NCBI GenBank assembly: GCA_964639985.1
Contig: CAZXHG010000011.1
Span: 7,871-71,870, forward strand
Direction of reading: 5' to 3'
Source: an uncultured Rickettsiales bacterium
GTDB lineage: Bacteria > Myxococcota_A > UBA796 > UBA9615 > CAYRNR01
DNA length: 64,000 nt
How positions within the stretch are numbered: the stretch's first letter is position 1; each line of letters starts with the position of its first letter. Under the pieces are notes generated by a model. The model was given only the letters and a program-made list of their open reading frames with translations, was not told where the DNA came from and searched no databases. The position numbers and the translations under genes were made by a program. Below, one piece after another: positions 12,188-64,000 of the stretch.

Positions 12188-12233
12188 GGGAAAACGGGTG
12201 GCACCGGGGTGGATTGGGAAAGCGGGTGGCACC
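12188..12233. repeat. two copies of GGGAAA(A/G)CGGGTGGCACC spaced 28 bp apart
   Basis: read directly; the 17-mer GGAAAACGGGTGGCACC recurs inside the cyclase gene at 29252-29268. Confidence 0.75.
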
Positions 12234-12313
12234 CGAAAAAAGCGGCTGTTCTAAGAACCTGCCCGATACCGGACAGTGTGATGGTGCTCTATCATCGCGA
12301 TGAGGGGTCATCC

Positions 12314-13456: not shown

Positions 13457-13480
13457 GACGGGCGAGAGGGCGGGGACCTG

Positions 13481-23800: not shown

Positions 23801-24026
23801 GGTCCCGGACCTGGCCGTCGTCGAGCGCCTTGCGAGCGGCTGCCACAACCGGGGTTCCACCCCATCGCTCGCTGCCCCAAAGGTTCTCCAGGTCCAGCTG
23901 CTCGTGTGACGTGTCGAGCAGGCGCAACGCCCGGGCGTTGACGAACGAGCAGCAACCCGAGGTGTCGTACATCACCACGCCCACGGGCACGGCTGCCCAC
24001 AGCGCGTGATCCTGGTGGTCGGACAT
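20823..24026 (-). CDS. large hybrid sensor histidine kinase (PAS/GAF-like, HisKA-HATPase, 2x REC, C-terminal Hpt-like)
   Basis: true ATG at 24024-24026 after AGGAGGGA; H-box [12 protein letters not shown]; two receivers (LIVDDN, LLAEDN); the upstream 797 aa of the track ORF are antisense of the STK-FGE gene. Confidence 0.85.
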
Positions 24027-24107
24027 GCGTCCCTCCTGCGTGAGTGCAAGAGTATCGAAACCCGCGCATGCCGGCGCCGGTTTCGTTACCTCCGCGCGTG
24101 GAGGACA

Positions 24108-26615: not shown

Positions 26616-28145
26616 ATGAACTCGACCCCACACGAAGACATCGAACGCATCCGCACCGAGCGGGACCTGTTCCTGCGGCTGCTGCAGCTCAGCGGCCAGG
26701 AGGATCTGCACGGGTTCCTGCGCAGCTCCCTGGACCTCGTCCTGGAGCTGACGGGCGCGCGCAAGGGCTACCTGGAGCTGTACACCGAGGAGGACGGCCC
26801 CCCGCGCTGGTCCCTGGCCTTCGGCTGCACCGAGGACGAAGTCGAGGGGATCCGCGAGGCCATCTCCCACGGCATCATCGCCCGCGCCATGGCCTCGGGC
26901 GAGACCGTGTCCACGGCCTCGGCCCTGAACGATCCGCGCTTCGCCGAGCAGGCGTCGGTGCAGTTCAACAAGATCATGGCCGTGTTGTGCGCGCCCATCG
27001 GCGGTGGGGACGGCGAGGCTCCGATGGGCGTGCTGTACCTGCAGGAGCGCGCCAAGATCGGTCCGTTCGACAAGCAGGACAAGCACTACGCCGAGCTCGT
27101 CGCTCGTCATCTCGCGCCCCAGGTGGACCGCCTGCTGCTCAAGCAGCACGCCCTGGACCAGGCCGATCCCACCCGGCCCTGGCGGGACAAGCTCGACATC
27201 GACGGCTTCGTCGGCGCCAGCCAGCCCATCGCGGACGTGCTGCGCACCGTGGCCCTGGTCGCACCCCTGGACATGGGTGTGCTGATCACCGGCCCCACCG
27301 GCACGGGCAAGTCGGAGATCGCGCGCGCCATCCACCGCAACAGCCCGCGTGCGTCCGGGCCGCTGGTGGAGATCAACTGCGCCGCCATCCCCGACACCCT
27401 GGTGGAGAGCGAGCTGTTCGGGGCCATGCCCGGGGCCGCCTCCGGGATCACCAGGAAGATGGAGGGCAAGGTCAGCGCAGCCGAGGGGGGCACCCTGTTC
27501 CTCGACGAGATCGCGGAGCTGCCGCTGCAGTCCCAGTCCAAGATCCTGCAGCTGCTGCAGTCCCGCGAGTACTATCGCCTCGGCTCGTCCCGACCCGAGG
27601 TGGCCGACATCCGCATCGTGGCGGCCACCAATCGCGATCTCGACGAGGCGGTGGCCGAGAAGCACTTCCGCGAGGATTTGTATTTCCGTCTCAACGTGGT
27701 GCCGCTGCGCATGCCCGGTCTGGCCGAGCACCCCGAGGACGTGCCGCTGCTGGCCGACTTCCTGCTGGAGCGCGCGGTGCGCAAGTACCGGCTACCCCGC
27801 CTGCGCCTCAGCCCGGCCGCGGCCGTGGCCATGACGTCCGCGGAGTGGCCGGGCAACGTGCGCGAGCTGGTCAACACCCTCGAGCGCGCCGCGGTCATGG
27901 CCGCGGGCGACGCCTCACCCACCATCGAGCCGGCGCACGTGTTCCCGGACCGCGCCGCACCCGAAGCGGACGAGCTTCCCGGCGACCTCACCTTCCAGGA
28001 GGCCACCCGCCGCTTCCAGCGCACGCTGATCGCCGACGCCCTGGCCGACACCGGCTGGAACGTATCCGAGACCGCGCGGCGCCTCGGCCTGGCCCGCTCC
28101 TACCTGTACGACCTGATCAACGCTCACGGCCTCCAGCGGAGCTGA
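26616..28145 (+). CDS. sigma-54-dependent Fis-family transcriptional activator (GAF-AAA+-HTH) with degenerate GAFTGA loop
   Basis: Walker A GPTGTGKS; ESELFG followed by AMPGAASG instead of HEKGAFTGA; C-terminal Fis HTH. Confidence 0.85.
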   Translation: MNSTPHEDIERIRTERDLFLRLLQLSGQEDLHGFLRSSLDLVLELTGARKGYLELYTEEDGPPRWSLAFGCTEDEVEGIREAISHGIIARAMASGETVSTASALNDPRFAEQASVQFNKIMAVLCAPIGGGDGEAPMGVLYLQERAKIGPFDKQDKHYAELVARHLAPQVDRLLLKQHALDQADPTRPWRDKLDIDGFVGASQPIADVLRTVALVAPLDMGVLITGPTGTGKSEIARAIHRNSPRASGPLVEINCAAIPDTLVESELFGAMPGAASGITRKMEGKVSAAEGGTLFLDEIAELPLQSQSKILQLLQSREYYRLGSSRPEVADIRIVAATNRDLDEAVAEKHFREDLYFRLNVVPLRMPGLAEHPEDVPLLADFLLERAVRKYRLPRLRLSPAAAVAMTSAEWPGNVRELVNTLERAAVMAAGDASPTIEPAHVFPDRAAPEADELPGDLTFQEATRRFQRTLIADALADTGWNVSETARRLGLARSYLYDLINAHGLQRS

Positions 28146-30765
28146 CGCCCCGCACCACGTGGAAGACGGGGAAGGTGCCGTAGCCCTTGGGGAGGGGCTG
28201 GGTGCCGGCGTATTCGCAGGTGAAGTCGTCGACGCCCTCGGCCGCGGCCAGGGCGGTGAAGGCGCGGGAGGCGTAGACGGTGCCGGCCGGGGTGATCTGC
28301 TCGATGCGGGCGGCGCGGCTGACGTGGGCGCCCATGAAGGTGAACTGGCCGGTGACCGGGTCGGTGAGGGCGTGGGTGGGGCCGGCGTGCAGGCCGACGC
28401 GGGTGCGGAGATCGGGGGGCATGCCGGCCTGCTCCCAGTCCGTGGCGCGGAACAGCTCGGACAGTTCCAGGGCGAAGAGGCCTGCGTCGCGGACGGAGAG
28501 GAAGACCATGTACAGGCCGTCGCCCCAGGTGTTGCGCACCACCGGCGCGTGGGCCGAGCGGTCGACGAGGGCGGCGATCTGGCCCAGGTGGTGCTCGGCG
28601 AAGCGGCGGAGCTGCACGTCGTCCAGCTGGCTGAAGCGGGCCGTGTCCGCGAACAACAGGGCCACGATGCGGTGGTCCGCGCCGTCGTCCGTTTCCGGCT
28701 CGTCGGCCGCTGCGTGGGGCAACGGCAGCACCGTGGGTTCGAGCTGGCGCTGCTGCCACAGGGCGATCGTGGCGGCGACGCCGTCCTCGCCCGGTCCGCC
28801 GCCGGACGCGGCGATCGGCACCACGGACGAGCCGAGGTGGCGGGCGCGGAAGGTGGCCAGCCCGAGAGCGACCCGTCGGGCGTAGTCCACGGCCGCGCGG
28901 TTCTGCAGGGCCTGGCGGCGGCCCATCACCTCCACGGTGGCGGCCTGTTCCAGGACCTTGTCGAAGCGCTGGCCCCAGCCCGGCGCCGTGGCCACGCGCT
29001 CGCGCCGGAACTCCTCCACCGGGCAGGGTAGGACGAGGTGCAGGTCACCACCGCGGGCGGCCATGGCCTCGGCGAACATCAGCTCCGCGCCGGCTGCGGC
29101 CGAGGTGTAGCCGTAGCGTGCGCCCGTGCGGTCGAGCTCGCGGGAGAGATGGTTGGCCAGCGCGATCTCCTCGGTCATGGACGAGGTCGGATCGTGGGCG
29201 TGCCGCACCGGCGCCACGAACAGGGCTACGGGTGGGGCAGGAGTCGGGTCCGGAAAACGGGTGGCACCTTCGTTCGCACCTTCGTTCGCAGCACCTTCGT
29301 TCGCACCTTCGTCCGTGACCTCGTCGTCGAATCCGGACAGTCGCCGCTGGTGCAGCAGGGCGCGGGCGCGGCCGGGGGCGCCTCCGGCTCGCAGGGCGGT
29401 GGCGAGCTGGGGGGCGAAGCGGTAGGAGGCCTGGGGCCAGCGGCCGAGGGCTTCGGTCAGGACCTCGGAGGCGAGCCAGGGTTCGCCTGCGGCGAGCAGG
29501 GCATCGGCGATGCGGCGGTAGAAGCCCGGGTTGAGGCGGGCCATGTTGGCGGGTCGGCCGTCCCAGATGGCCAGGAGGTCGGCGAGGCGGGTGGGGAGGG
29601 GGGCGGCGTCCCGCTCCATGCTGATCAGGGAATCGTCCAGGGAGATGCTGGCCGGTCCGCCGGCGGGTTCGCTGCCCAGCCGCTCCAGGGCCCAGCGGGA
29701 GAACATCCGGGAGCCGGCCACGAAGCGGTTGGTGCCCACCTCGCGGATCAGGCCGTTGACCAGCAGCTGGTCGAGGGCGTCCTCCACCCGGTCGACGTCG
29801 CCGCCGTAGATCTCGATGGCCGTGAACTTCTTGAACGGCTCGCGGGCGTGGGCGATCGGCCCGTAGAGCTGGCGTGCCTCGTCGCCGCACGACCCCCACC
29901 ACCGCTGGAAGTCGCCGCGTCGCTCCTTGAGGAAGCGCTGGCGGGCGCGCTCCAGCGCGTCGAGGTCCCCGCCGTCCTCCCAGAGCCTGCCCAGCAGGTA
30001 CTGGGCCAGGTAGGGGTGGCCGCCGACCTCGATGAGCAGCTCGCGTTCGGTGTCGGCCGGGAGGTCCTGGTCGAATCCGGCGCGCACCAGCTCCCTGACC
30101 GCGTCGTCGTCGATCAGCGCCATCTCCACGATGGTGACCACGTTGTAGAACGGCGATCCGGCCGTGCTCCACAGGTCCACGCTGGACAGTGTGCCGGCGA
30201 TGATCACGTTGAACCGTTGACGCAGCGCGCTCTGGCTGATCAGGAAGCGGGTGTTGGTGAAGAAGTCCTTGGACCACTCGTGCTGCCGCAGCTCGTCGAT
30301 CTCATCGAGCATGACGAACAGCTGCACCGTGTCGTCGAGGTCCATCACCTCCCGCAGCGTGTCCACGAAGTGCTCGAACGCGAAGTGCTCGGCCACCTCC
30401 CCGCCGCGCAGGTCCCGGATGGCCACGCCGAGCAGGTCCCGTGCCTCGGCGTGCAGCGAGCCGGAGGTGCGCAGCTCCGACAGGATGGCCGCGAACACGG
30501 CCGAGCGGGCCAGGCGGCCGAACTGCTGGGCGCTGAGCAGCACGGGCACCACCCGCAGCCCGGCGGCGGTCTCGGGCTGACGCCGCAGCTCGTGGGCCAC
30601 GCGCATCAGCAGGGAGGTCTTGCCGATGCGGGTCCCGCCGAGCACGGCAAAGGACTCGCCGCGGCGCGCGCGGCCCGCGATCTCGGCGACCTGGTCGTGG
30701 CGGCCGACGAACAGCGCCGGGCGGTCCTCGGGCTGGTCGAAGCGGTAGGGGGTCTCGCCGTTCAT
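28117..30765 (-). CDS. STAND/AAA+ NTPase, LOG/SLOG-like Rossmann domain and class III adenylate/guanylate cyclase fusion protein
   Basis: Walker A GGTRIGKTS, Walker B LFVMLDEIDE, GxP motif GGHPYL; central YGYTSAAAGAELMFAEAMAARGGDLHLVLP and SGGGPGEDG segments; C-terminal cyclase motifs LLFADTARFS, GDGLYMVF, RVGLHAGP, SRAARIE. Confidence 0.8.
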   Translation of the reverse strand: MNGETPYRFDQPEDRPALFVGRHDQVAEIAGRARRGESFAVLGGTRIGKTSLLMRVAHELRRQPETAAGLRVVPVLLSAQQFGRLARSAVFAAILSELRTSGSLHAEARDLLGVAIRDLRGGEVAEHFAFEHFVDTLREVMDLDDTVQLFVMLDEIDELRQHEWSKDFFTNTRFLISQSALRQRFNVIIAGTLSSVDLWSTAGSPFYNVVTIVEMALIDDDAVRELVRAGFDQDLPADTERELLIEVGGHPYLAQYLLGRLWEDGGDLDALERARQRFLKERRGDFQRWWGSCGDEARQLYGPIAHAREPFKKFTAIEIYGGDVDRVEDALDQLLVNGLIREVGTNRFVAGSRMFSRWALERLGSEPAGGPASISLDDSLISMERDAAPLPTRLADLLAIWDGRPANMARLNPGFYRRIADALLAAGEPWLASEVLTEALGRWPQASYRFAPQLATALRAGGAPGRARALLHQRRLSGFDDEVTDEGANEGAANEGANEGATRFPDPTPAPPVALFVAPVRHAHDPTSSMTEEIALANHLSRELDRTGARYGYTSAAAGAELMFAEAMAARGGDLHLVLPCPVEEFRRERVATAPGWGQRFDKVLEQAATVEVMGRRQALQNRAAVDYARRVALGLATFRARHLGSSVVPIAASGGGPGEDGVAATIALWQQRQLEPTVLPLPHAAADEPETDDGADHRIVALLFADTARFSQLDDVQLRRFAEHHLGQIAALVDRSAHAPVVRNTWGDGLYMVFLSVRDAGLFALELSELFRATDWEQAGMPPDLRTRVGLHAGPTHALTDPVTGQFTFMGAHVSRAARIEQITPAGTVYASRAFTALAAAEGVDDFTCEYAGTQPLPKGYGTFPVFHVVRGVSSAGGRER
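29266..29312. repeat. tandem 12/15-bp coding repeats (TTCGTTCGCA[GCA]CC) encoding the (G-A-N-E)n linker of the cyclase protein
   Basis: read directly; encodes GANEGAANEGANEGA. Confidence 0.7.
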
Positions 30766-33700
30766 GCCTCGATGTCCAGTCGCCGCACCCGGATGTACGT
30801 GCGCAGCAGCCTCATGGTGAACCGGTACTGGTCGCCGCGGCGATCCAGCAGGGAGAACTGCTCGAGGTTCTGCAGCTCGCGGTCGAAGCGGTCGGGATCG
30901 TCGAACAGCCGCGACGTGCGCTGCTGCAGTTCGGTGCGGGTGATGGCGCCGTCCTCGTCCGCGGCCACCGCGTCGAGGATCCCGCGCTGGAAGGAGTTGA
31001 GGTAGAAGCTGAGGATCTCGCCGAAGTACCCCTTCTTCAGGGTCAGGTAGCTCTCCGCGGCCACCCGCACCGTCTGGGCGTTGATCGTCACCGGCCGCTG
31101 GTCACCGGCGACCTTGGCCGTCTCCGAGCACAGCTGGCGGCAGACCATGGGGTGTCCGCCGCTGAGGTCGTACAGGGTGACCAGCGCGTCGTCGGTGAAG
31201 CCCAGGCCCATGCCCGCGCCGAGGTTGGTCACCATCTCCGCGGTCTCGGACGTGCTCAGCGGGCCCACGAACAGCTCGGACAGGTACTGGAAGATGGGGT
31301 TGTCGCGGCCGCCCCAGCGGCCCTGCAGGCACAGCCGGGCGTCCGCGCCGACCACGGCGAAGCCGAACACGTCGCGGAAGTCGGTCTGGTGCAGGCCGCG
31401 CAGCAGGCGGAAGAACGTGTCGTAGTGGGTGAAGCCGTCGTGGAAGTTGCCGCCGTCGAGTTCGTGGGGGATCAGGTGCTCGATCTCGTCGATCAGGAAG
31501 AACAACGTGGTGATGGAGGACGTCTCCAGGATGGCCGCGCGCAGGGTGCGCAGGTTGCCTTCGAACGCGACCATGGCCCCGGCCGGATCGTCCGGCAGCG
31601 GCGTCAGCTCCGGGCCCTCCACGTGCGGGAACTTGGCGGCCCAGTCCTCCAGGGCGCGGTCGCACAGCAGCTGGGCAAGGGAGAGGCAGGACGACGACGC
31701 CACCTCCTGCAGGTCGACCATGGCCACCACCGAGTCCGACAGGTGGGTGCGTAGCCGGTGGGCCAGCGAGGTCTTGCCCATCTTGCGGATGCCGAACACG
31801 CCGAACACCTCGCCCCGGTGCACCTTGCGCACCAGGGTGCGCAGCACCTGGCCGCGGCCGAAGAACTCGGCAGCGTCCAGCACCGGGTCCTTCTTGTCGA
31901 ACAGGTCCTCGCCGAGCAGCCACTGGGACCGCAGCTGGGTGAGCATGGCGCGGGTGCGGAAGTCGGCGACCGCGTCGCGCAGGGTGCGCTCGTCCAGGGG
32001 CAGCATGTGCAGCCGCGGCTGCTCGATCATGGAGGTCATGATCAGCTCGGTGGTGCCCGCGCTGGGCCGGGCCGCGCTGACCAGGACGGCCAGCCCCCGG
32101 GCCGTGCCGTCCCGGTCCTCCATGGAGCGACGGAAGTCCAGCACGTCCTCCGGGGACGGCGCGCGGTTGAGGTAGACCCGCACGCGCGCGTGATCCAGCT
32201 CCTTCCACCACCCGCTCAGGGGTGCGGCGGGGTGCACGAAGATCAGCTCGACCAGGCCGTCGCGGGTCTGCTGCAGCGGCCGGGCCTGCAGACCCAGGGA
32301 GGCGGCCAGCAGCTCGACCACGCCCACGGTGTCGAGGTCCTGCACCAGGGACGCGGCGTAGCGGCTGGCGAACGAACGGGTGTCCGGGATGTGGCTGGCC
32401 CGCTCCAGCGCGGTCAGGGCCAGGGTATGCCGGCCCAGCTTGCGGTGGATCCCGGTCAGCGCCAGCCACAGGAAGCCGTCGGCCGGGTTGCGCCGCGCGT
32501 ACTCCTCGAACGCGGCCTCCACGGCCTTGAGGTAGGGTACGGACTCGTCCACCGCGTCGGCCGAGGCCAGCAGCTGCTCGCGGCAGTCACGGTCCTCGAG
32601 CATGTCCACCACGGCCGAGGTGATCACCCCCACCTGTGGCTCGTCGGTCTCTTCGTAGAACTCCTTGAGCCGGTCGGCGATCATCGGGGCGAGATCCGGC
32701 CGCTGCTCGGCCACCTTGAGCAGGGCCGGGTAGAGGAACAGGATCCCGCCAGACGGGGGCGAGGCCCAGATGATGTGCTCCTCGAGGTCGGTCTCCAGCA
32801 GCGCGTCGGTCAGGCAATCCACGGCCTCGGCCGTGGGGTGCTCGGCCACGGCCTGCTCGGCGAACTCGATGGCCTTGCCCGCGTTGCCCGCGGCGAGCTC
32901 CATGCGGGCGAGCTGGACCATGAAGCGCAGGCGGGGGTCGGGCAGCGCCAGCGTGCGTTCGTACACGGATCGCGCCTCGTCGTCCGCCCGCGCCCGCTGG
33001 GCGTGGCCCAGCGCCAGCAGGGGCAGCAGCGGCGTGTCGGGATCGGAGCCCACCGAGCGGGCCAGGGTGGTGTAGAGGTCCTCCTCGACCAGGCCCAGGG
33101 TCTGCTGGGCCTCCAGCAGGCTGACGAGCTGGTCCGGCGACAGGTTCCGCACGGCGTCGAGCTGCAGCAGGATGTCCCGCACCCCCTGCATGTCCCCCAC
33201 GCGGGAGTAGTACTCGAACAGCCGCTGCAGCACCTCGGGCTCCCGCGGCCACTGGGAGCGGGCCTGCTCCAGCACGGCCCGCTCCTCGTGCGCGTTGGCC
33301 TCTCGCTTGTGGATGCGCGCCATCTGCAGGAAGGGTCGCTTCCACGCCGGCATGATCGTGGCCAGATAGGTGAATGCGGCGCGCGCGAGCTGGGACTTGC
33401 CCAGCGCCAGGAACAGGTCGCCCTGCAGCAGCACCACCAGCGCCAGCCCCACGGCCAGCGCCAGGGCGCCGAGCACCCAGCGACCCAGCGCGCCAACGCG
33501 CGCCTCCCGGTCCTGCTGCACGGCGATGTAGGTCTGCATCTCCTGGGCCTGGGGGTGCCACGGCTCCAGGGCCAGCACGGTCGCACACGCGGCATCGGCC
33601 GCCTCCCAGCGGTGGTCCTGCACGGCCTGCTGGCAGCGGGCGAACTCCCCCTCCACCCGGTCCGGATGGGCGGCCTGGCGGGCCCAGGCGCGGCGCCGGC

Positions 33701-34307
33701 TCAGCTCCCAGTCGTCGGGGTAGAACCGAAGCGCGGCCGTGGTCAGGGTCTGCACGTCCAGCGCGTACTCGTCGGTCAGCGGCCGTTGCAGCGCCAGCGA
33801 GCGCAGCTGCTGGCCGATGGCGTCGGTCCACGCGCGCAGCACGGCCGCGTCCGCGGGCAGGGCCTGCTGGGCGACGAACAGCTCGAGCTCACCCTGGCGG
33901 TAGTCCCCCTCGTCGAGCAGCCGCGTGCCCAGCACGTAGTGGGCCGTGGCCAGGTTGCCGGCCCGGTCGAACAGGCAGCCGTGGCCATGGTCCACGCCCA
34001 CGCCGATCACCTCGGCCACGGCCACGTCGCACAGGGGGTGGTCGGTCTCGGGCAACCGTTCGCGGCAGTCCGCACCGAACTCGTCCAGCGCCAGCGTGGT
34101 CACCGTCAGCCAGGCCTCGTGGGAGAACGAGTCCTCGGCCCAGCACGGCGACAGCTGGCTCACGCGGTCCAGCAGATCCGGATCGACCTCCGGGATCTCG
34201 ACCTGGGCCGCGGCGTGGCCGCCGAGGAGCAACGACAGCAGCAGCAGTGTGGGATGGAGCGATCGCCTCACACGGCGATCGTAGGGAGGTGGGGTGCGGG
34301 CGGTCAA
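30762..34307 (-). CDS. membrane-anchored STAND NTPase with periplasmic N-terminal domain, TPR-like region and C-terminal NTPase
   Basis: signal peptide ...GGHAAAQ, one TM (LGALALAVGLALVVLL); Walker A FGIRKMGKTS, Walker B LFFLIDEIEH, GGHPMV; TTG start at 34307 (alternative GTG at 34271); ATGA-type overlap with the cyclase gene. Confidence 0.75.
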   Translation of the reverse strand: MTARTPPPYDRRVRRSLHPTLLLLSLLLGGHAAAQVEIPEVDPDLLDRVSQLSPCWAEDSFSHEAWLTVTTLALDEFGADCRERLPETDHPLCDVAVAEVIGVGVDHGHGCLFDRAGNLATAHYVLGTRLLDEGDYRQGELELFVAQQALPADAAVLRAWTDAIGQQLRSLALQRPLTDEYALDVQTLTTAALRFYPDDWELSRRRAWARQAAHPDRVEGEFARCQQAVQDHRWEAADAACATVLALEPWHPQAQEMQTYIAVQQDREARVGALGRWVLGALALAVGLALVVLLQGDLFLALGKSQLARAAFTYLATIMPAWKRPFLQMARIHKREANAHEERAVLEQARSQWPREPEVLQRLFEYYSRVGDMQGVRDILLQLDAVRNLSPDQLVSLLEAQQTLGLVEEDLYTTLARSVGSDPDTPLLPLLALGHAQRARADDEARSVYERTLALPDPRLRFMVQLARMELAAGNAGKAIEFAEQAVAEHPTAEAVDCLTDALLETDLEEHIIWASPPSGGILFLYPALLKVAEQRPDLAPMIADRLKEFYEETDEPQVGVITSAVVDMLEDRDCREQLLASADAVDESVPYLKAVEAAFEEYARRNPADGFLWLALTGIHRKLGRHTLALTALERASHIPDTRSFASRYAASLVQDLDTVGVVELLAASLGLQARPLQQTRDGLVELIFVHPAAPLSGWWKELDHARVRVYLNRAPSPEDVLDFRRSMEDRDGTARGLAVLVSAARPSAGTTELIMTSMIEQPRLHMLPLDERTLRDAVADFRTRAMLTQLRSQWLLGEDLFDKKDPVLDAAEFFGRGQVLRTLVRKVHRGEVFGVFGIRKMGKTSLAHRLRTHLSDSVVAMVDLQEVASSSCLSLAQLLCDRALEDWAAKFPHVEGPELTPLPDDPAGAMVAFEGNLRTLRAAILETSSITTLFFLIDEIEHLIPHELDGGNFHDGFTHYDTFFRLLRGLHQTDFRDVFGFAVVGADARLCLQGRWGGRDNPIFQYLSELFVGPLSTSETAEMVTNLGAGMGLGFTDDALVTLYDLSGGHPMVCRQLCSETAKVAGDQRPVTINAQTVRVAAESYLTLKKGYFGEILSFYLNSFQRGILDAVAADEDGAITRTELQQRTSRLFDDPDRFDRELQNLEQFSLLDRRGDQYRFTMRLLRTYIRVRRLDIEA

Positions 34308-55197: not shown

Positions 55198-56466
55198 TCA
55201 GCCGAACTTCATCGGCCGGTTGCTGAAGTCGGCGCGGGTCTGCAGGTAGCCGGCGAGCACCTCGTAGACCATCTCGTTGGCGGCCTTGTCCGGGATGTGC
55301 AACAGCGCGGCGACCGCGGTCATCAACTCCTGCTCGCCGGCCTGGAGCCGCCCGTCGACGGCCACCATGTGGGCCAGCTGCCGGAACAGGAAGAATCGCT
55401 CCTCGCCGGCGTTGTCCCGGAGCCAGGCCGCGGTCTCCTCCAGCCGGGCCTGTGCCTGTTCGACCGTCTCGATGCGGTCGATCTGGGCCTCGGGGTCGGA
55501 CGTGAGCGGCAGCAGCAGGTTGATCAGCAGCTGCCACTGATCGTCGGTGATGCCCTCCTCGTCCGAGTGCGCGGCCAGCAGGCCGCCGGCGAGCAGGAAG
55601 TCGCGGGCGTGCACGTCGAGCTCCTTGGTGACCTCGTAGTCGAGAAGCCGTGCGATCCGGGCGATGTCCGCGTCCACGGGCTCGAGGGCGCCGGCGCCGC
55701 CCGACGGGTCGAGCGAGCCGCCGGCCTCGGTGAACAGCTGAAGCGCGCGGACGCGAACCGGGGTGACGGGGTGGCTGAAGGTGGCCAGTACGTCGCGGCG
55801 TTTCATCTTCTGCAGGTCCTCGAGCTGCTCGAGGAACGCAGAGATGTCGAAGCGCAGGTGCTCGGGGCCCAGGCCGCTGGCCAGCTTGAAGAACGCCGAG
55901 ACGATGGTGTCCAGGTCCCCGTCGACGGCCACCAGCCCGGCACGGTCCGCGCTCAGCTCGGCCAGCCGGCTCCAGGTCTGCATGCGCGCGCCGAGCAGGG
56001 GCGGCACGCGGGAGTTGCCGCGCTCGTCCTGGCCGATGGCGTGGTCGATCAGCAGGGCGCGGTAGTGGCGGTAGTGCAGGTGGCCCAGCTCGTGGCCGAG
56101 GGCGAACAGGAGCTCGGCATCGGTCATGCGCTCGACCATGCCCGCGGTCAGGCTGACCACGTGGGGCTGATCTGCGGCCAGCGAGTGCAGGGCGAAGGCG
56201 TTGACCACCGAGTCCGGGGCCACGTACAGCTCGACGGCGTGGTCGAACCGGATGCGTTCGCGTGCCTGGTCGAGCAGTGTGCACAGTCGAGGGGCGAGCA
56301 GCGGCGTGAGCCGCAGCTGAGTGCTCATCACGAACTCGTAGTAGCGGCCGGCCTCACCGGAGCGCTCGAAGTGGTCGATGTGCTCCTCGAGCGCGAACTG
56401 CTCGAACAGGTGGTCGATCAGGGCGCGTTCGGGCTGGAAACGGACCTCGTCGAGGGGGTGGGGCAT
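55198..56466 (-). CDS. M48-family zinc metallopeptidase with C-terminal TerB-like domain
   Basis: HELGHLHYRH HExxH motif plus downstream Glu; C-terminal FLFRQLAHMVAVDGRLQAGE TerB-like block; ATG after GGAGGA. Confidence 0.75.
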   Translation of the reverse strand: MPHPLDEVRFQPERALIDHLFEQFALEEHIDHFERSGEAGRYYEFVMSTQLRLTPLLAPRLCTLLDQARERIRFDHAVELYVAPDSVVNAFALHSLAADQPHVVSLTAGMVERMTDAELLFALGHELGHLHYRHYRALLIDHAIGQDERGNSRVPPLLGARMQTWSRLAELSADRAGLVAVDGDLDTIVSAFFKLASGLGPEHLRFDISAFLEQLEDLQKMKRRDVLATFSHPVTPVRVRALQLFTEAGGSLDPSGGAGALEPVDADIARIARLLDYEVTKELDVHARDFLLAGGLLAAHSDEEGITDDQWQLLINLLLPLTSDPEAQIDRIETVEQAQARLEETAAWLRDNAGEERFFLFRQLAHMVAVDGRLQAGEQELMTAVAALLHIPDKAANEMVYEVLAGYLQTRADFSNRPMKFG

Positions 56467-56822
56467 ACGGATGTCCTCCGGTGCAGGCGCCCATGGTACC
56501 AATGCCCTCGTACGACTGCGCTCCTTGACAGACGCCTGGGAGTCGGGAGGGCAGACCCCGCGGCATCCACCGCAGAGCGTCGTTGTCGTTCCGTACCGTA
56601 CGCGAAGGTGGATTGCCCGCAGGCCGGCCTGAAAGAATCACTCCGTTCCATCGCGTAGAGGGGCATCGCGTTGACGTCCCCAGGATCGTGGCCTGGGCGG
56701 GCATCTGGAACCTGGTTGCTGGCGGGGCCGGTATCGTGATCTTGTCCTGGTACATCGTGGGGCGCTACGGTCTGTTCGCGGACCGGATGGAGAAGCTCGA
56801 CCCGCTGGATTGAAGGGTGGCC

Positions 56823-57284
56823 ATGCCTGATCTGCTGAGTTGCTGTTTCGATCCGGACTTCGAGATGGAGTTCGAGCTGGAACTCCCATCGACTGCCGAG
56901 ATCGGCCTGGCGCGGTGTGCGAGGTGCGGCCGATTCTGGATCCTGTATCTGCGAGTCGACGTGGAATCTGCGTCGACGCTGACACAGCGCCACGCCTGCG
57001 GTGATGACGAGACCGTCGTCGCGGTCATGGTGCAGCTCACGACACCGGAAGCGCGTGCCATGATCCTGCTCCACGATAACCTGCCCCCCACCGAGGCGCT
57101 CGAACGCATCGGGAGGACGCGGCTCGAACCTCGTCCCCACCTCTTCTTCCGCACTGCCCAGTGCCAGGCCCAGGCTACTGTATGTGATCTCCGGGCGCTT
57201 GCCTCGGAGCTGGAGTACTCGCAGGTCTTCGAACCGGACGACCCGGAGCAATCGTTCGAGCTGGGGAGTGTCTGGCTGGGATGA
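56823..57284 (+). CDS. hypothetical Cys-containing small protein
   Basis: ATG after GAAGGGTGG; CC...CARCGRFW; stop overlaps the phosphatase start. Confidence 0.45.
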   Translation: MPDLLSCCFDPDFEMEFELELPSTAEIGLARCARCGRFWILYLRVDVESASTLTQRHACGDDETVVAVMVQLTTPEARAMILLHDNLPPTEALERIGRTRLEPRPHLFFRTAQCQAQATVCDLRALASELEYSQVFEPDDPEQSFELGSVWLG

Positions 57285-58069
57285 CGCGTCTCATCGCCAT
57301 CGGTGACGTACACGGCTGCCGCGACGAGCTCGAGCTGCTACTCGACCGGCTCTCGCTCGCGTCGGATGACCGCCTGGTCTTTCTCGGGGACCTGATCGAC
57401 CGCGGCCCCTACCCGCTGGATGTGCTCCGGCGCGTGAAGCAGCTCACCGACGAACACCCTCGCTCCGCCTCGCTGCTGGGGAACCACGAGTACAAGTGGA
57501 TGCGGCGGCTTCGCAGGGGGCGGCCGCTCCCTAACGACGACCTGCAATCGGCCACTCCCGAGGAACTGGACTGGCTCGTGCAGCGCCCGCTGTTCGCACG
57601 CGAGCGTTCCAGGGATCTCGTGTTCGTGCACGCCGGCTTCGCCACGAGCTACTTCCGGCACTACGGTTCCCTGCCCGAGGACCCCGAGGAGCTGGAGTCC
57701 GCCCCTCGCAAGCAGCGCGATCGTGCCAGCCGGTTCGTGTACATCCGGCACCTGACCCCGGGGGGCGACATGGTGAGCCTGGGCCAGGAGACCGCAGAGA
57801 CGCCCTACTGGGCCGAGGTCTACGACGGCTGCGAGGGGTTCGCATGTTTCGGTCACGAGATCTTCATGGACGACGCACCGCGCCGTTTTCCCCACGCGCT
57901 CGGGCTCGACGGGGGCTGCGTGTTCGGCGGTGAACTGCTCGCCGCGGTCTGGGAAGGGGATGTAGAGCCCGATCGACCTCGGATCGTGCGGCAGGCGGCG
58001 CTGGACGTGTATGCCGAGCTGCGGGATCTGCACGGGCCCCTCGATGGCCGCGGGGGCCGTGGACCGTGA
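57281..58069 (+). CDS. PPP-family metallophosphoesterase (Ser/Thr phosphatase / ApaH-like)
   Basis: GDVHGC, GDLIDRGP, GNHE motifs. Confidence 0.8.
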   Translation: MTRLIAIGDVHGCRDELELLLDRLSLASDDRLVFLGDLIDRGPYPLDVLRRVKQLTDEHPRSASLLGNHEYKWMRRLRRGRPLPNDDLQSATPEELDWLVQRPLFARERSRDLVFVHAGFATSYFRHYGSLPEDPEELESAPRKQRDRASRFVYIRHLTPGGDMVSLGQETAETPYWAEVYDGCEGFACFGHEIFMDDAPRRFPHALGLDGGCVFGGELLAAVWEGDVEPDRPRIVRQAALDVYAELRDLHGPLDGRGGRGP

Positions 58070-58821
58070 TCCGGCAGGAGGGCCCTGCCGTCCAGCATCA
58101 CCAGGTCTCGGCCGGGCTTGTCCGGTTTCCCATCCCTGCGCTCGGGTATGCCTGTGTCGTGGCCTGGTTCTTCCTGGAGCTGATCCTGCCGTTCCAGGTC
58201 GAGGCCGTCGATCTGGTCGTCCCAGGACTGCAACTCGCACGGACCCCCACCGACGAGTGGCGACCGTCGGCCATGATGTACTTCAACCATGCCAGGGTGC
58301 TGGCCTGCATCCCTCTGTTCGTGCTCGGTACGTGGATGGCGACGGCGTGGGCGTGTCGGGGGAGCGGATTGTCGCGATCCTGGGTGGTCCGCGTGTGCCG
58401 CACGGCGGCCAGGGCTGCCTGTGTGGTGATCGCAGCCGAGTCGATCTTCTGGGCCCTGGGTAGCGACCGACGGCTTCTGCTGGGTGATGCCGAGTGGAAC
58501 GGCGTTGCCGTGCTCGCAGCGCTCGTGGCCTCGTGCTGGTTCTTGGGGATGATGCTGTACACCGCCCGGCTGGTCGGAACGGCGCGTGCTTCAGCGTGGT
58601 TGATGATGGTGTGGTTCGCTCAGGTGGCCTGGCTCCTGCTCGGATCCACGGCGTCCCATGCGCTGGTGATGGCATCGCGTGGAGGTAGTGGATGGCCTCC
58701 GTTGGGGCAGATCGCCGTGGTCGACAGTCTGGCAGCCACCATGTTGTTCGTGGCCTTCGTTCATTCGTGTGCGATGGCGTACGGGGTGATCGGTGATCGG
58801 ATCGTCGATCCGGTCCCCTGA
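58066..58821 (+). CDS. hypothetical polytopic membrane protein
   Basis: GTGA overlap with the phosphatase; ~6 hydrophobic segments. Confidence 0.45.
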   Translation: MIRQEGPAVQHHQVSAGLVRFPIPALGYACVVAWFFLELILPFQVEAVDLVVPGLQLARTPTDEWRPSAMMYFNHARVLACIPLFVLGTWMATAWACRGSGLSRSWVVRVCRTAARAACVVIAAESIFWALGSDRRLLLGDAEWNGVAVLAALVASCWFLGMMLYTARLVGTARASAWLMMVWFAQVAWLLLGSTASHALVMASRGGSGWPPLGQIAVVDSLAATMLFVAFVHSCAMAYGVIGDRIVDPVP

Positions 58822-59244
58822 CAGTGGTGATCGCCGTCGAGCAGTGCATCGAGGTCGACCAAGATGTCGTGCGTTCGGTGTTCGACGGCGGAGACACCGG
58901 TGTCGTGGACCGTGGCCTTCAGCACGCCCGCCTCGACCACCCCCTCACCACCATGTTGCGTGTCCAGGGCGAGACAGCTTGGGGTGAACACCAGGGATGG
59001 GAGCAGGAACACGGAGGAACAGCGTCGCTGGACTCGGGTGGGCGTATAGCTGGCGAACATCGGCCCTGGATGATCTGATCCAGTGGCGCGTCGACCAGCG
59101 GGAACGGCGACGTCGGGTAATGGTGCGCGCGGGAGTGGGGACCGTGGTGGGGGTGGTGATCGCCCTCGGAGAAGGCGTGGGATGCCCTCCCTGATGTCCG
59201 GTCGACGATCGCAGTAGGATCGGTGGTCCAGCGAAGGGAGCACC

Positions 59245-61329
59245 GTGAGCCGCGTCCGCTACGAGTTCGTCCCGTGGGGATACGTCCTGGAGCCCCGTGC
59301 CGGCGTCGTCGCGATCGACGTGGGGAACAAGATGGTCCCCGGCGTGATCGACCACCACCAGGCATCGTGTGACTACGGGTGCGCGGCCTCCTTGCTGGTG
59401 AGGCGACCCGACCTGGTCCTCGAGCACAAGCGAGCCCACCCGACCACGCGCCTGACCCTGGTCATGCATCGCCACCCGGACTTCGACTGCGTGGTCAGCG
59501 CGATGCTGGCCCAGGCGCTGTGGTTCGACGGTGAGCTGCCGCTCGAGGTGGAGCCGCTCGCCGAGTTCGCGCGTCAGGTCGATTCGGCGACGGTTCCCAG
59601 GTCGATGCCGCTGGGAGACTCGTTGCACACGGTCTATCTGGCGCTGGGCGAGATCCTGGCCCAGCAGCACCGAGGTGACGCGGGCGAGCTGTTCGTGGCG
59701 CAGGTGGAACGGGGGCTGAAGCTCGTACGCTACGCCGTGCAGAAGTACCGCTCTGCCCGGGCGCGGGGCCGTGCCCGGGATTTCGCTTACCACGCACCCC
59801 ACCTGTTCAACGGTCGCCACCCGTTCCGCGAGGAGGTGGCGTACCTGCGGGCGGACCACGAGCGCTACGAGGCCGACCTGCGGCGCGGTGAGGTGAATCG
59901 TGTGTCGGTCCTTCATGCGGACGAGGACCGTCTGGTCGAGGTGGACTCACTTCGGTTGACCGATCCGCAGAGCGCGCTGTTCAAGTACTTCGCCCGGGCG
60001 GACGTCGGCAACAGTCCGGGCGGTCGTGGTTTCCCCCTGACCCACGTGGTCTTCGCGGATGTGCTGGAGGATGGCGATCGTCACGTCATTTCCACGGATC
60101 CGGAGGCGCGCCTGTCCCTGCGCGGTCTCGGCAAGGCCCTCGAAGAAGAGGAGACAGCAGCACGGCTGTTGTCCGGCCACCCTCGCGGAGGCGTTCCCCG
60201 CTGGCCAGACGTGGACAACGGTGATCCGTGGTACGACGGCCGCGGTCCCCTGCACAGGTACACCATCGTCGACAGCCCCCGCGCGGGATCCGTGCTGGAC
60301 ACGCTGCACGTCGAGGCTGTTCTCCGTCGCCCGACCACGGACCCGGACTCGTGGCAACAGCGGGGTCTCCGGCGAGCCCAGTGGCTCTGCCTCGGTTGCG
60401 GGACGCCGACCGACGAGGAAGGGGAGTGCTCGCTCCACGGTGAGGACCGCCTGCCCACGGTCGTCTCCAGCTACGAGATCCAGGGCCAGATCGGTGAGGG
60501 TGGGATGGGTCGCGTGTACCTGGTGCTGGACCGCGTGCGTGCACGCCCCGCGGCCATGAAGGTCGTCCGCGCGGAGATCCTCGCGAACCCGGCCGTGGCC
60601 GAGCGGTTCCTCAAGGAGATCCGTCTCGCCAGCGCGCACGTGCACGCCAACCTCATCGACACCTACGATCGGGGCATGGACGACAGGATCGGCCTGTGGG
60701 TCGTGATGGAGTTCCTGCGCGGGCAGGACCTGCGGCACGTGCTGCGCGACTGGCAGGAGAGCCACCCGGGTCGCCCCTTCCCGCCCAGCGCCACCGTGGG
60801 CATCTTCACGCAGATCTGCAGGGGGCTCGATGCCCTGCACCGGCGTGGCATCGTGCACTGCGACCTCAAGCCCTCCAACGTGTTCATCACGCGGGACGAC
60901 GCTGGCTGGCCGCGGGTCAAGCTGCTGGACTTCGGGTGCGCGGATCAGCTGTGGATGCTTGCCGGGCAGGATGAGCGCGACGTGCTGGTGACGGGCACGA
61001 TCCCGTACATGGCGCCCGAGGCGTTCGAGGGGGAGCGGCGTACGGGGACCGACGTCTATGCGCTGGGCTGCATGCTGTTGCAGGCCCTCACGGGCCGCGT
61101 TCCGCACGTGAAGTCCGGTGATGACTCCGAACCCGTGTCCGCGCTGGTCGAGCGCCGCAGGGGTGGCGCCCCCGACCTGTCCGGCATCGCCGCGTCCGCG
61201 AACCGACGGGTCGCCAACCTCGTTCGAGATGCCCTGGTGGCCGACCCGCGGCGTCGCATCCAGGATGTGCAGGTGTTCAGCCGTCGCCTGATGCGGGCGT
61301 ACGACCGTTCGGCCGATGGGTGGCGGTGA
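59245..61329 (+). CDS. Ser/Thr protein kinase with ~400-aa N-terminal domain carrying DHH-phosphoesterase-like motifs and a zinc ribbon
   Basis: GTG start after GAAGGGAG; N-terminal VIDHHQ and HRHPDFDCVVSAMLAQAL; WLCLGCG...ECSLHG; kinase GxGxxG IGEGGMGRVY, HCDLKPSN, DFG, APE. Confidence 0.8.
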   Translation: MSRVRYEFVPWGYVLEPRAGVVAIDVGNKMVPGVIDHHQASCDYGCAASLLVRRPDLVLEHKRAHPTTRLTLVMHRHPDFDCVVSAMLAQALWFDGELPLEVEPLAEFARQVDSATVPRSMPLGDSLHTVYLALGEILAQQHRGDAGELFVAQVERGLKLVRYAVQKYRSARARGRARDFAYHAPHLFNGRHPFREEVAYLRADHERYEADLRRGEVNRVSVLHADEDRLVEVDSLRLTDPQSALFKYFARADVGNSPGGRGFPLTHVVFADVLEDGDRHVISTDPEARLSLRGLGKALEEEETAARLLSGHPRGGVPRWPDVDNGDPWYDGRGPLHRYTIVDSPRAGSVLDTLHVEAVLRRPTTDPDSWQQRGLRRAQWLCLGCGTPTDEEGECSLHGEDRLPTVVSSYEIQGQIGEGGMGRVYLVLDRVRARPAAMKVVRAEILANPAVAERFLKEIRLASAHVHANLIDTYDRGMDDRIGLWVVMEFLRGQDLRHVLRDWQESHPGRPFPPSATVGIFTQICRGLDALHRRGIVHCDLKPSNVFITRDDAGWPRVKLLDFGCADQLWMLAGQDERDVLVTGTIPYMAPEAFEGERRTGTDVYALGCMLLQALTGRVPHVKSGDDSEPVSALVERRRGGAPDLSGIAASANRRVANLVRDALVADPRRRIQDVQVFSRRLMRAYDRSADGWR

Positions 61330-61362
61330 GGCGGGGGGAAGGTGGACGCGCACCCGTGTCTC

Positions 61363-64000
61363 TCAGGTCCCCAGGAGCGTCTCCACGACGATCCTCGCCA
61401 CGTCCTCGCTGCGCAGCACGTGTCTCGTCAGCGGATCCACCAGGAGGGCGGACCCGCGTCGCGGGATCGAGTCGAGCACGAAAGCGTGCTCGAGATCACA
61501 TTCGGGGCAGGTCGCCAGTACGAGCCACGGGTCGAGGTCGGCCCGGGTGCCGTCTGGCCACTCGTGCAGGAGGTGCGGTCCGCGGTCGGGGCGATGCGCG
61601 CGATGGAACTCCCCGGCCGCAAAGACCGGATCCTCCTCGCCGAGACGGGCGAGCGCGGCTGCCAGCTCGTGGAGCCTCTCGATGGCCTGCTCGTCGACCA
61701 TGCCGGGGAACCGCCGGGCCTCGGTGAACCACCGGATCCAGGGCTCGGCGAGCTCACCGAGTCGGGTGTCCCTGTCGGGGATCCCGGACCATGAGCCCAG
61801 GTGCTGCAGGAGGTTCAGCCGACGGCTCGGGACCGCCCGCTGCTGCAGTGCCTGCAGGATGAAGCTTCCGTGCTCGGACGGGCCACCTGCGCACGCCACG
61901 TGGTGTGCCAGCTCGGTGACGAATGCATGATCGAGTGCGCCGCGGAGCAGGTCCTGTGTCCGCAGCAGGATCTCCCGGGGCGCGGGATTGCTCTCGACGG
62001 CCTCGGACCAGCGGCGAGCCAGTTGCGAGAGGTGCGGCAGATCGGCGCGGTACGCGACCTGGGCACCGGGGACCGTCCGGACGATCGACGACACGGGAGG
62101 CAGAGGATGGCCGCCAGCGGTGGATTCGGATGGGGCGGTTCGCGTTCGTTCACCACGACAGGTCTCCCGGAATCCCCCTTCGTTCCGCGTCCCGGGCACG
62201 GTTCGCTGGCGACCATCTCCAGCATGAACGTAGGTCCACTGCCTTCCAGACCAGCGTTCGTAGAGCAGCAGCGGAGCGCCGGCGCCCGGCCATTCGTCGA
62301 ACAGGACGAAGGGCCGGAGACTGATCGGTTCGTTCTCGCCCCAGCGGAAGAACACCTCTCCGGGGCTTGCGGTGCTCGTGAACGGACGCACCACGGGATC
62401 GTCGAGGCGCGGACGAGGACCGCGTAGCCGGAGGAACGTCGATCCGGCTTCATCCCGGTACTGGTAGACCAGCAGTTCTGCACCTGTCAGTGCGTCGAGC
62501 AGTTCGAGGTACTCCGAGGCCAGCTGCAGGAAGTCCGTGAGCGTCTTCTCGGCCTCGTCCTGGTGTGGGGCCCCACCGTGCGCCAGCTGGTTCCGGGTAT
62601 GGACCAGCCGGCTGGCCTTCTCCGCCAGACCGCGGCCGATTCTCCCTCGTGCGAGGTCGGCGAGGTCGGGGAACGCGACCTGTGCGCCCTCGCGGTCGGC
62701 AGCTCGGTAGTATGCCAGCGGCAGCTGGGCCCACACGCCCATGGATGGGCGCCGTAGCTGGTCGAATATTCGAGGTGGTGGGAAGCCCGTGTGGAGCGAA
62801 TCGCACGCGGCCAGAACACCCACGAACTTCATCGCGTTCGCCACGGCCCCGACGAGCCACCAGGTGAGCCCCAGCGGCGAGTCGAAGTGCGCCGATTCCT
62901 CGATCACCCCGGCGACGGTCGAGGGCATCTGGCGGAGACGGTAGAGGAACGATGTGAGCCGGGCTCCTGATCCGCTCATCTCGCCCAGCCGGCCAACCAG
63001 CAGGCCGTCGACGAGGTCGCGGTGGTCCACGCGCTGCTCCTGCATGCTGGCCGCCAGCGAGGCGATGTGGTTCCACTCCTGGCCCGCAGCCACTCCCTCC
63101 ACCAGGGACAGCGCCGCCTCGGTCGCCCCCGATGCTGCACAGTGCGCCAGTCCATGTCGGGCCAGGTAGTCGCGGGCGACGTGTCCCTCGCGCAGCTGGG
63201 CCCAATCCGCCGACAGGTTGCAGTACTCGGCCGACGCGAGCTGTCCCTGCAGGCGCATTCGCGCGGACTCGCGCACGTGCATGCGGAAGGTGAGGTGATA
63301 GGGCTCCACGCCCAGCTGCTCACCCGAAGACATCGGCGTCCAGCGGAGCATGGCGGAGACGGTCCTCAGGCCTTCGTCGAGGATCTCGCTCCCCGCCTCG
63401 TCGTCGACGAGCACCTTGCGCCGCACCATCAGGCATTCGAGCACCTCCCTTGCCAGGGGCGCGCGGGCCCAGGCGACCGTGGTCACCAGCGGGGTGAGCA
63501 ACGCCTGCAGGTCTCCGAGGGACATGCGGTGGAGCAGATCGTCGTAGTAGTCGTCGAGACTGGGGGGGAGCCTGGATGCGAGATCGGCGACCGACAGGTG
63601 ACCTGCGAGCAGGTCCTGCACCACGAAACGCACGTAGAGCGGAAGACCGCGGGCATGCCTGGCGACCTCGTCGACCAGCCGGTTCTCGACCTCCTCCCGG
63701 TCGGGGATGTCCACGTCGGCCCGCAGCAGCTCGTACTTCAACCTGCCCGTACCCTCGACGAGCATCGCCCGGATGTCGCCGGGATCCATGGGGCCGAGCC
63801 CATCCTCGAAGACGTGCTTGCAGCGGTCCCTGGCGTAGATCGAGGGCAGGTCACCTTCCGGTCTCCCGGCGCAGAGCCACACGACGTTGGGGCCTCCGAG
63901 CTCGAAGGGCAGTCGGGCGACTCCCGGGTCGATACGCGAGATCTCGTCGAGCCCGTCGAGGACGAACAGCGCGCGGGGTGGGCGAGCCCTCGGGTCCGGG
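61363..64000 (-). CDS. STAND (NACHT/NB-ARC-type) NTPase, 5' end beyond the window
   Basis: the in-frame reading continues upstream of the GTG at 63882 to the window edge and encodes the Walker B block ALFVLDGLDE; GxP motif GLPLYV; ~600-aa C-terminal region of unknown function. Confidence 0.7.
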   Translation of the reverse strand, partial: PDPRARPPRALFVLDGLDEISRIDPGVARLPFELGGPNVVWLCAGRPEGDLPSIYARDRCKHVFEDGLGPMDPGDIRAMLVEGTGRLKYELLRADVDIPDREEVENRLVDEVARHARGLPLYVRFVVQDLLAGHLSVADLASRLPPSLDDYYDDLLHRMSLGDLQALLTPLVTTVAWARAPLAREVLECLMVRRKVLVDDEAGSEILDEGLRTVSAMLRWTPMSSGEQLGVEPYHLTFRMHVRESARMRLQGQLASAEYCNLSADWAQLREGHVARDYLARHGLAHCAASGATEAALSLVEGVAAGQEWNHIASLAASMQEQRVDHRDLVDGLLVGRLGEMSGSGARLTSFLYRLRQMPSTVAGVIEESAHFDSPLGLTWWLVGAVANAMKFVGVLAACDSLHTGFPPPRIFDQLRRPSMGVWAQLPLAYYRAADREGAQVAFPDLADLARGRIGRGLAEKASRLVHTRNQLAHGGAPHQDEAEKTLTDFLQLASEYLELLDALTGAELLVYQYRDEAGSTFLRLRGPRPRLDDPVVRPFTSTASPGEVFFRWGENEPISLRPFVLFDEWPGAGAPLLLYERWSGRQWTYVHAGDGRQRTVPGTRNEGGFRETCRGERTRTAPSESTAGGHPLPPVSSIVRTVPGAQVAYRADLPHLSQLARRWSEAVESNPAPREILLRTQDLLRGALDHAFVTELAHHVACAGGPSEHGSFILQALQQRAVPSRRLNLLQHLGSWSGIPDRDTRLGELAEPWIRWFTEARRFPGMVDEQAIERLHELAAALARLGEEDPVFAAGEFHRAHRPDRGPHLLHEWPDGTRADLDPWLVLATCPECDLEHAFVLDSIPRRGSALLVDPLTRHVLRSEDVARIVVETLLGT

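Follow-up and report, generated by a model that had tools for sequence, protein, structure and literature searches.

Gene structure and domain organization

We analyzed a 64,000-nucleotide stretch of contig CAZXHG010000011.1 from an uncultured Rickettsiales bacterium (Myxococcota_A in the GTDB lineage; the whole stretch is hereafter called the window), focusing on one gene at positions 59245–61329 of the forward strand that encodes a rearranged DHH-like module, a putative zinc ribbon, and a Hanks-type Ser/Thr kinase in a single protein. The gene begins with a GTG start codon, located 5 nt downstream of the Shine-Dalgarno sequence GAAGGGAG, and its product of 694 amino acids (aa) comprises the module (residues 1–372), the ribbon (residues 382–398), and the kinase (residues 410–677). 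Its third-position GC content of 0.86, in a genome of about 70% GC, marks it as a real gene, and an identical protein (P0001) is on record in a 72-kb Joint Genome Institute (JGI) metagenome contig. The 694-aa protein has neither a PASTA domain nor a transmembrane segment, nor does it contain any other sensor that is known, and no flanking repeats suggestive of a mobile element were found around the gene. Promoter and terminator scans remained at chance level. A single terminator-like hairpin was found in the 56.4–61.6 kb region (59756–59779, forward strand), within the module coding sequence, and it is probably meaningless (one found, 1.4 expected by chance).

Scans with Pfam, NCBIfam, and PADLOC found no family model covering residues 1–372. 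A search with residues 1–405 returned 34 homologues, none of which has a Pfam domain over the module region; residues 1–372 are a conserved family with no existing domain model. A literature search for permuted DHH domains or DHH-kinase fusions found nothing relevant, in agreement with a preliminary description of this DNA, made from the sequence alone, whose author did not recognize the architecture as a described one.

DHH-type motifs and their order

All DHH-type motifs of the module lie in lobe 1 (residues 1–125; 59245–59619; coordinates in this and the next two sections refer to the forward strand), a small α/β unit defined by AlphaFold, conservation, and the re-ordering tests reported below. 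From the N-terminus, they are the candidate motif II Asp, D25, at the end of strand 21–24 ('vvaIDVG'; 59317–59319), the DHH triad or motif III, G33-V-I-D36-H37-H38 (59341–59358), motif I (HxxxDxD), H75-R-H-P78-D79-F-D81 (59467–59487), and the candidate motif IV Asp, D113, at the end of helix 102–113 ('VDSA'; 59581–59583), which was assigned by position and conservation only. Canonical DHH metal ligands are the His and two Asp residues of motif I, the Asp of motif II, the His of motif III, and the Asp of motif IV, as mapped in family II pyrophosphatase, NrnA, and RecJ, and motif I is N-terminal in every canonical DHH protein known to us. The module departs from this linear order (I-II-III-IV): motifs II (D25) and III (36–38) come first and are followed by I (75–81) and IV (113). 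The preliminary description had noticed that a DHH triad precedes HxxxDxD, the reverse of the usual order. Both strings are present (VIDHHQ at residues 34–39, HRHPDFDCVVSAMLAQAL at residues 75–92) and lie 39–43 residues apart.

Among 69 aligned modules, D25 is retained in 62, D36 in 66, H37 in 61, H38 in 64, H75 in 63, D79 in 64, D81 in all 69, and D113 in 60. In other alignments of the family, D36, P78, and D81 are invariant, and H37 and H38 are conserved to at least 90%. Retention of the motif residues in 60–69 of the 69 homologous modules shows that the motifs themselves are not fortuitous. Judged from sequence, the conserved residues D25, D36-H37-H38, H75/D79/D81, and D113 correspond to a full set of predicted DHH-type metal ligands. 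The Pfam DHH profile (PF01368) gives a sub-threshold match on motif I of the window protein (residues 72–96, profile positions 4–26), and a weak match to this profile was found in 17 of 18 module family members.

In a re-ordering test, the motif I unit was placed in silico ahead of the D25/DHH segment. The re-ordered authentic sequences scored 21.8–24.0 bits against PF01368 in five of five members, with a colinear alignment extending to profile positions 76–81. The motif I segment alone scored 15.1–15.8 bits (profile positions 2–28), re-ordered sequences with D25 and DHH replaced by Ala scored 14.3–14.7 bits (profile positions 2–32), and those with a reversed upstream segment scored 14.1–16.3 bits with no consistent extension. 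Hence, the gain of 6–9 bits was obtained only with the native D25/DHH residues in forward orientation, and the best re-ordered score (24.0 bits) is still below the Pfam gathering threshold of 28.1 bits. The upstream segment alone (residues 1–66) had no Pfam DHH match in 10 members.

A corresponding result was obtained with hhalign, using PDB-verified NrnA-type sequences as templates. In native order, motif I alone aligned with NrnA (score 22.7–22.9), and in the re-ordered form the score was 31.9–34.4 (E = 8e-4 to 2e-3) over 67–71 columns that span motifs I, II, and III. The re-ordered alignments pair motif I with motif I, 'vvaIDVG' with 'lvivCDTAN' (motif II), and 'VIDHH' with 'KIDHH' (motif III); the pairing of D25 with the motif II (CDTAN) of NrnA appears only in this form. 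Two other rearrangements, used as controls, scored 21–23. The hhalign probabilities were low (≤25%) because the NrnA template profile, built from relatives at least 65% identical, is shallow. Taken together, the re-ordering gains and the failing controls indicate a motif order of II-III-I-IV, and they support relocation of a putative strand-motif I-helix unit to a position behind motif III. The earlier wording, 'permuted or degenerate DHH-like', is thus borne out in its first half by the re-ordering tests, whereas 'degenerate' does not apply to the window protein, which retains the full ligand set.

Predicted fold of the module

AlphaFold models of the window module (predicted local distance difference test score [pLDDT] 92.7, predicted template modeling score [pTM] 0.86) and of a stand-alone homologue, P0010 (pLDDT 94.8, pTM 0.91), share the same order of secondary structures: an α/β lobe with the motifs, long helices, and a second α/β lobe. 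The helical linker or insert between the lobes (residues 126–214; 59620–59886) includes long helices at residues 146–173 and 195–214, and D204 and Y208 in this region are invariant. Lobe 2 (residues 215–372; 59887–60360), delimited by AlphaFold and conservation, has its own invariant set (K247, R251, G262, R279, E303, R307, W329-Y330-x-G332, and D343-S-P345).

Structure prediction had been suggested as a check in the preliminary description, and in a Foldseek search of 350,542 PDB chains both models placed DHH-superfamily proteins at the top. Ranks 1–11 for the window model were PggH (probability 0.97–0.98), RecJ/Cdc45, family II pyrophosphatase, and CDC45, and ranks 1–8 for P0010 were PPX1 (0.85), GdpP (0.80), RecJ2, and 6mtz, an unannotated Helicobacter pylori protein that is presumably of the DHH family. 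An hhalign comparison of residues 205–372 with NrnA found no similarity to DHHA1 (E = 0.31, with an irrelevant region aligned). The Foldseek alignments span whole two-lobed targets, and a structural analogy of lobe 2 to DHHA1 is possible on the basis of these models. From the motif order, its conservation, and the fold rankings, we conclude that residues 1–372 are probably a remote, sequence-rearranged, two-lobed member of the DHH superfamily.

Kinase domain and predicted zinc ribbon

The Hanks-type Ser/Thr kinase (residues 410–677; 60472–61275) is complete, as had been noted earlier (Pfam Pkinase E = 2.9e-39; 135.5 bits against PF00069, cut-off 31.7). All catalytic motifs were located: the G-loop GEGGMGRV at residue 417, K439, H538-C-D540-LKPSN, DFG at 562, and APE at 590. 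The sole deviation is HCD in place of HRD (Cys for Arg), which makes this a non-RD kinase, and the nearest solved structures are those of PknB (match about 1e-54). Because its catalytic motifs are all intact, the kinase looks active. The PADLOC models of the PD-T4-6 and mad6 kinases match this domain at 1e-58 to 1e-53, and NCBIfam scores were 102 for MAD6 (cut-off 460) and 42 for PglW (cut-off 990). Assignment to a defence kinase was rejected, since the matches cover only the generic kinase domain (residues 401–690); no partner genes of PD-T4-6, MADS, or BREX PglW systems were found nearby.

Between module and kinase lies a zinc-ribbon-like linker, recognized by its motif, C382-x2-C385-x9-C395-x2-H398 (60388–60438). 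The ribbon of the preliminary description is therefore present, but its last pair reads CxxH instead of 'C-x-H'. The first three Cys residues are conserved in close module-first fusions, with H, D, or E as the fourth ligand; the spacing is shifted in some members, and the ribbon has a pLDDT of 67–87 in the window model. This type of linker (CPxC-x8-12-C-x2-[H/D/E]) is confined to module-first kinase fusions and occurs in none of the 29 proteins with a long N-terminal extension before the module, 26 of which are kinase-first fusions. We read the predicted zinc ribbon as a structural connector between module and kinase.

Architectures and state of the ligand set

Architectures were surveyed in the top 150 proteins of an exhaustive representative search. 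The profile of that search included kinase columns, so its 1.36 million matches are mostly kinases and do not represent family size. A final profile search, limited by its word prefilter, gave at least 24 matches and added only a caspase clade. The stand-alone module of about 340 aa is nearly always found in Aminicenantes and is scattered in Planctomycetota, Chloroflexia, and other groups. The window protein and its relatives have the module-zinc ribbon-kinase architecture, and the kinase-first arrangement (kinase-module) is also present. Other relatives include TPR-class III cyclase-module proteins (with a related protein, P0092, made up of cyclase and module only), kinase-module-TIR fusions, proteins with a kinase, the module, and a CofD-like region, and module-caspase fusions. 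In a metagenome-assembled genome of Woesearchaeota, an open reading frame (ORF) of at least 3913 aa that runs off its locus (L040:5460–17200, forward strand) carries an FHA domain (residues 283–353) and the rearranged DHH module (residues 847–1255), with the remainder lacking a Pfam match. No relatives of the module were found in viral contigs.

All eight residues of the ligand set are present in each of the 29 stand-alone modules, and the window protein, its close relatives, and the cyclase fusions likewise have the full set. Most kinase-first fusions also have it, and single substitutions occur in a few. In the caspase clade (P0034 and P0303–P0307), all six proteins have lost every putative ligand except D81. 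Their module is followed by a caspase-like domain (Peptidase_C14) at the C-terminus; recorded annotations name a caspase in three of the six, and P0303 is a short protein. P0034 (L004:8001–9989) is encoded near a giant kinase-nSTAND1-FGE-sulfatase protein and extracytoplasmic function (ECF) sigma factors. Based on its complete ligand set, the module of the window protein is predicted to be catalytically competent, and the module of the caspase fusions would, by the same residues, have turned into a pseudo-enzyme. Such a division into active and dead copies recalls, by analogy, nucleotide-signal hydrolases that double as receptors.

Genomic context

Upstream of the kinase gene lie ordinary genes of polyhydroxyalkanoate metabolism and, 424 bp from the gene on the same strand, a pair composed of an ApaH/PrpE/PPP-type calcineurin-like metallophosphatase (57281–58069, forward strand) and a 251-aa multi-pass membrane protein with no family match (58066–58821, forward strand), the start of which overlaps the metallophosphatase stop by 4 bp. 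The metallophosphatase could be the cognate phosphatase of the kinase or a diadenosine tetraphosphate (Ap4A)-type hydrolase. Downstream, a gene for an 839-aa protein is convergent with the kinase gene (61363–63882, reverse strand; 34 bp between the stop codons). This protein has weak HEPN matches (HEPN_MAE_28990 E = 5e-4, Swt1-like HEPN, and PADLOC CARF_HEPN) centered on 'TRNQLAHGG', an R-x4-H motif near residue 450, as well as a faint Avs1b-like stretch at residues 61–120, and it may be a HEPN RNase effector.

None of five window neighbors recurred when they were compared by tblastn with 88 loci, and the genomic contexts of other kinase fusions differ among themselves; the kinase fusion protein therefore appears self-contained. 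In three close module-first fusions (L005, L006, and L087), the gene order is a 177–219-aa ORF, the fusion gene, a 190-aa ORF, and a glycerophosphodiester phosphodiesterase (GDPD) gene, with a weak PilZ protein encoded on the other strand; the window lacks this gene order. In 37 of 74 genome loci (L001, L003, and 35 among L007–L086), all from Aminicenantes, a mutY-like gene immediately precedes the stand-alone module gene in the same direction, with an overlap of 17 bp between the two in L003. The mutY-like gene (HhH-GPD and NUDIX_4 domains) itself follows an ABC-transporter accessory cluster, and the genes downstream of the module are variable.

Third-position GC content is 0.80–0.86 at 57–64 kb, where the window ends, and 0.93–0.96 in the genes upstream. 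Across the window, two stretches (about 57000–64000 and about 7000–13500) have third-position GC of 0.80–0.86, compared to 0.90–0.97 elsewhere, and a lower overall GC content (0.65–0.70); both may be islands gained by horizontal transfer. Two-component and sigma-54 signaling genes abound in the window as a whole, which would fit a myxobacterium-like organism. Among these is a histidine kinase with an N-terminal FHA domain (5618–6862, reverse strand; FHA, HisKA, and HATPase_c), which would link phospho-threonine recognition to two-component signaling. A second one is an 1864-aa hybrid histidine kinase (20823–26417, reverse strand; PAS domains, HisKA, HATPase_c, and two receiver domains), opposite which lies an 850-aa ORF (24006–26558, forward strand) with a third-position GC of 0.90; either one of these ORFs or the N-terminal third of the longer one probably does not represent a real gene. 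The window also encodes a 434-aa protein in which an M48 (HtpX-like) zinc peptidase is joined to a TerB domain at the C-terminus (55198–56502, reverse strand), adjacent proteins of 882 aa (AAA_35/AAA_16, a STAND-like ATPase) and 1181 aa (no Pfam match) at 28117–34307 (reverse strand), and an N6 DNA methylase at 34–1908 (reverse strand).

Proposed function and alternatives

On balance, we consider it probable that the window protein represents a new rearranged variant of the DHH superfamily, in which a predicted metal phosphoesterase is fused to an apparently active kinase and may act as a ligand-gated switch. The fusions to cyclases, TIR domains, and caspases suggest a regulatory role of the module, in which it would read or destroy a small signal that contains phosphate. 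The coupling of nucleotide or nanoRNA signals to protein phosphorylation, raised in the preliminary description, is something that we infer, and the same fusions add to its plausibility. The protein would be a soluble, self-contained signaling enzyme, and its module a divalent-metal-dependent phosphoesterase that holds its substrate in the cleft between the lobes, with K247, R251, R279, and R307 of lobe 2 in the role played by the GGGH/DHHA1 lobe of NrnA, GdpP, and PggH. With less certainty, the substrate would be a nucleotide-derived phosphoester, such as nanoRNA, pNpN, adenosine 3',5'-bisphosphate (pAp), or a cyclic mono-, di-, or oligonucleotide. The lobes might then close when the substrate is bound or hydrolyzed, and this movement, passed on by the rigid ribbon, might set how active the neighboring kinase is. 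The module would thereby combine a ligand-gated switch with a terminator of its own signal, and the same logic could hold for its attachment in either order to kinases, to cyclases and TIR domains, and for the dead copy on caspases.

Several points weigh against this interpretation. Every similarity measure is individually non-significant. The native module scores 15.7–17.8 bits against PF01368 (gathering threshold 28.1 bits), profile searches of PDB sequences with the module found nothing by single sequence, and the domain-only module profile matched one spurious lipase (E = 2) among PDB chains. The best Foldseek E-values were 1.4e-3 to 1.6e-3, none was below 1e-3, and TM-scores were 0.2–0.38; such borderline statistics would be expected of a sequential aligner applied to a rearranged, hinged two-lobe protein, and they are no proof alone. 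The gain in hhalign score varies with the position of the junction. DHHA1 (PF02272) had no match in Pfam scans of the window protein and family members, and the GGGH motif is absent from lobe 2; given these absences and the unmet Pfam gathering score, we place the module in DHH at the superfamily level only. That the eight residues gather in a single metal site is an assumption. Regulation might run either way between module and kinase, no neighbor is conserved with the kinase fusions, and the mutY adjacency of the stand-alone genes hints at nucleic-acid over second-messenger substrates.

In a more specific form, which we regard as speculative and rather unlikely, the module would be both receptor and terminator of a nucleotide-derived messenger and would itself gate kinase, TIR, caspase, and cyclase effectors. 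It would then constitute a new, portable sensor class of bacterial signaling or immunity, of which the active copies time the signal and the dead caspase copies only read it.

Somewhat less likely still is a role of the module as a phosphoesterase of nucleic-acid ends (a RecJ-like exonuclease, or an enzyme of deoxyribose phosphate [dRP] or nanoRNA trimming), with the kinase linking DNA or RNA damage or turnover to phosphorylation. RecJ is a DHH enzyme that participates in base-excision repair, RecJ/Cdc45/RecJ2 are among the top fold matches, and the stand-alone genes adjoin, and in L003 overlap, a mutY-like glycosylase gene. However, this synteny is limited to Aminicenantes and may be inherited gene order, and no OB fold or other DNA-binding domain is present. 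Cyclase, TIR, caspase, and kinase partners are typical of small-molecule signaling or conflict systems, and the best fold matches (PggH, PPX1, and GdpP) are enzymes of small substrates.

We give slightly less credence again to a pyrophosphatase or exopolyphosphatase that would remove inorganic pyrophosphate (PPi) in the cyclase fusions and, in the kinase fusions, report phosphate or polyphosphate status to signaling. Its attraction is that the module directly follows class III cyclase domains, which release PPi, that yeast exopolyphosphatase PPX1 ranks top for P0010, and that family II pyrophosphatases rank high for the window model. Kinases and TIR domains, however, do not produce PPi, the presence in lobe 2 of aromatic residues (W329, Y330, and Y208) beside basic ones suits base stacking better than the binding of polyphosphate, and the fold E-values fail to discriminate between DHH subfamilies.

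It appears improbable that the module of the window protein is a non-catalytic pseudo-enzyme that merely regulates or localizes the kinase by ligand binding or scaffolding. The caspase clade, in which the fold is retained and D81 is the last ligand left, implies that a module can work without catalysis, and single substitutions occur in a few kinase-first fusions, but D25, D36, H37, H38, H75, D79, D81, and D113 are all retained in the window protein, its relatives, and the 29 stand-alone proteins, and little other than metal binding or catalysis would readily account for such conservation. Finally, a convergent or chance resemblance, with DHH and DxD strings on an unrelated fold, is very improbable: no similarity statistic reaches its threshold individually, the motif order is not that of the DHH family, and a DHHA1 signal is lacking, but the two models rank different DHH-superfamily proteins first in the PDB search, with no other coherent family among the leading matches, 17 of 18 members match Pfam DHH, the re-ordering gain needs the native D25/DHH residues in forward orientation, and all seven canonical ligand types are present and conserved.

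If the interpretation as a rearranged DHH phosphoesterase module is true, a domain family of about 350 residues has been uncovered that Pfam, NCBIfam, and PADLOC models do not cover, and it would, according to the searches made, be the first branch of the DHH superfamily described with a rearranged sequence. The family would account for the 'unknown' N-terminal region of a recurrent type of bacterial Hanks kinase, together with the cyclase, TIR, and caspase fusions, and would provide a handle on the small molecule that controls these kinases. The proposal is a testable hypothesis, with eight named ligands and a cleft lined by K247, R251, R279, R307, W329, and Y330. The active (stand-alone, kinase, and cyclase) and dead (caspase) copies would represent a natural experiment in the transition from enzyme to sensor.

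Comparison with known systems

The module resembles DHH-DHHA1 phosphodiesterases (NrnA, PggH, TmPDE, the GdpP catalytic domain, and Rv2837c/CnpB) in its two-lobed architecture and size, as well as in the residue identities of the HxxxDxD, D, and DHH motifs, and like them it is a predicted divalent-metal phosphoesterase of small nucleotides; PggH (0.97–0.98) and GdpP (0.80) provide the best fold matches of this group. It differs in motif order (II-III-I-IV, not I-II-III-IV), in having fewer strands in lobe 1 and a long helical insert (residues 126–214), and in a second lobe that has neither DHHA1 similarity nor GGGH; PF01368 scores below its threshold, and PF02272 has no match. PPX1, family II inorganic pyrophosphatase, and RecJ/Cdc45 share the metal-ligand constellation and are top fold matches, whereas they have the canonical order, other second lobes (DHHA2 and others), and no comparable fusions to kinases, cyclases, TIR domains, or caspases.

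The kinase domain is like those of PknB-like Hanks kinases and of the PD-T4-6 and MADS kinases. In bacterial Hanks kinases with accessory domains, a connection by way of a short zinc ribbon appears typical, whereas the accessory module here is a predicted enzyme. A functional analogy only can be drawn with GGDEF/EAL proteins and with the membrane-associated DHH-DHHA1 ring nuclease of type III CRISPR systems (PMC7824862), where a nucleotide-signal hydrolase is likewise placed on output domains and dead copies are presumed receptors.

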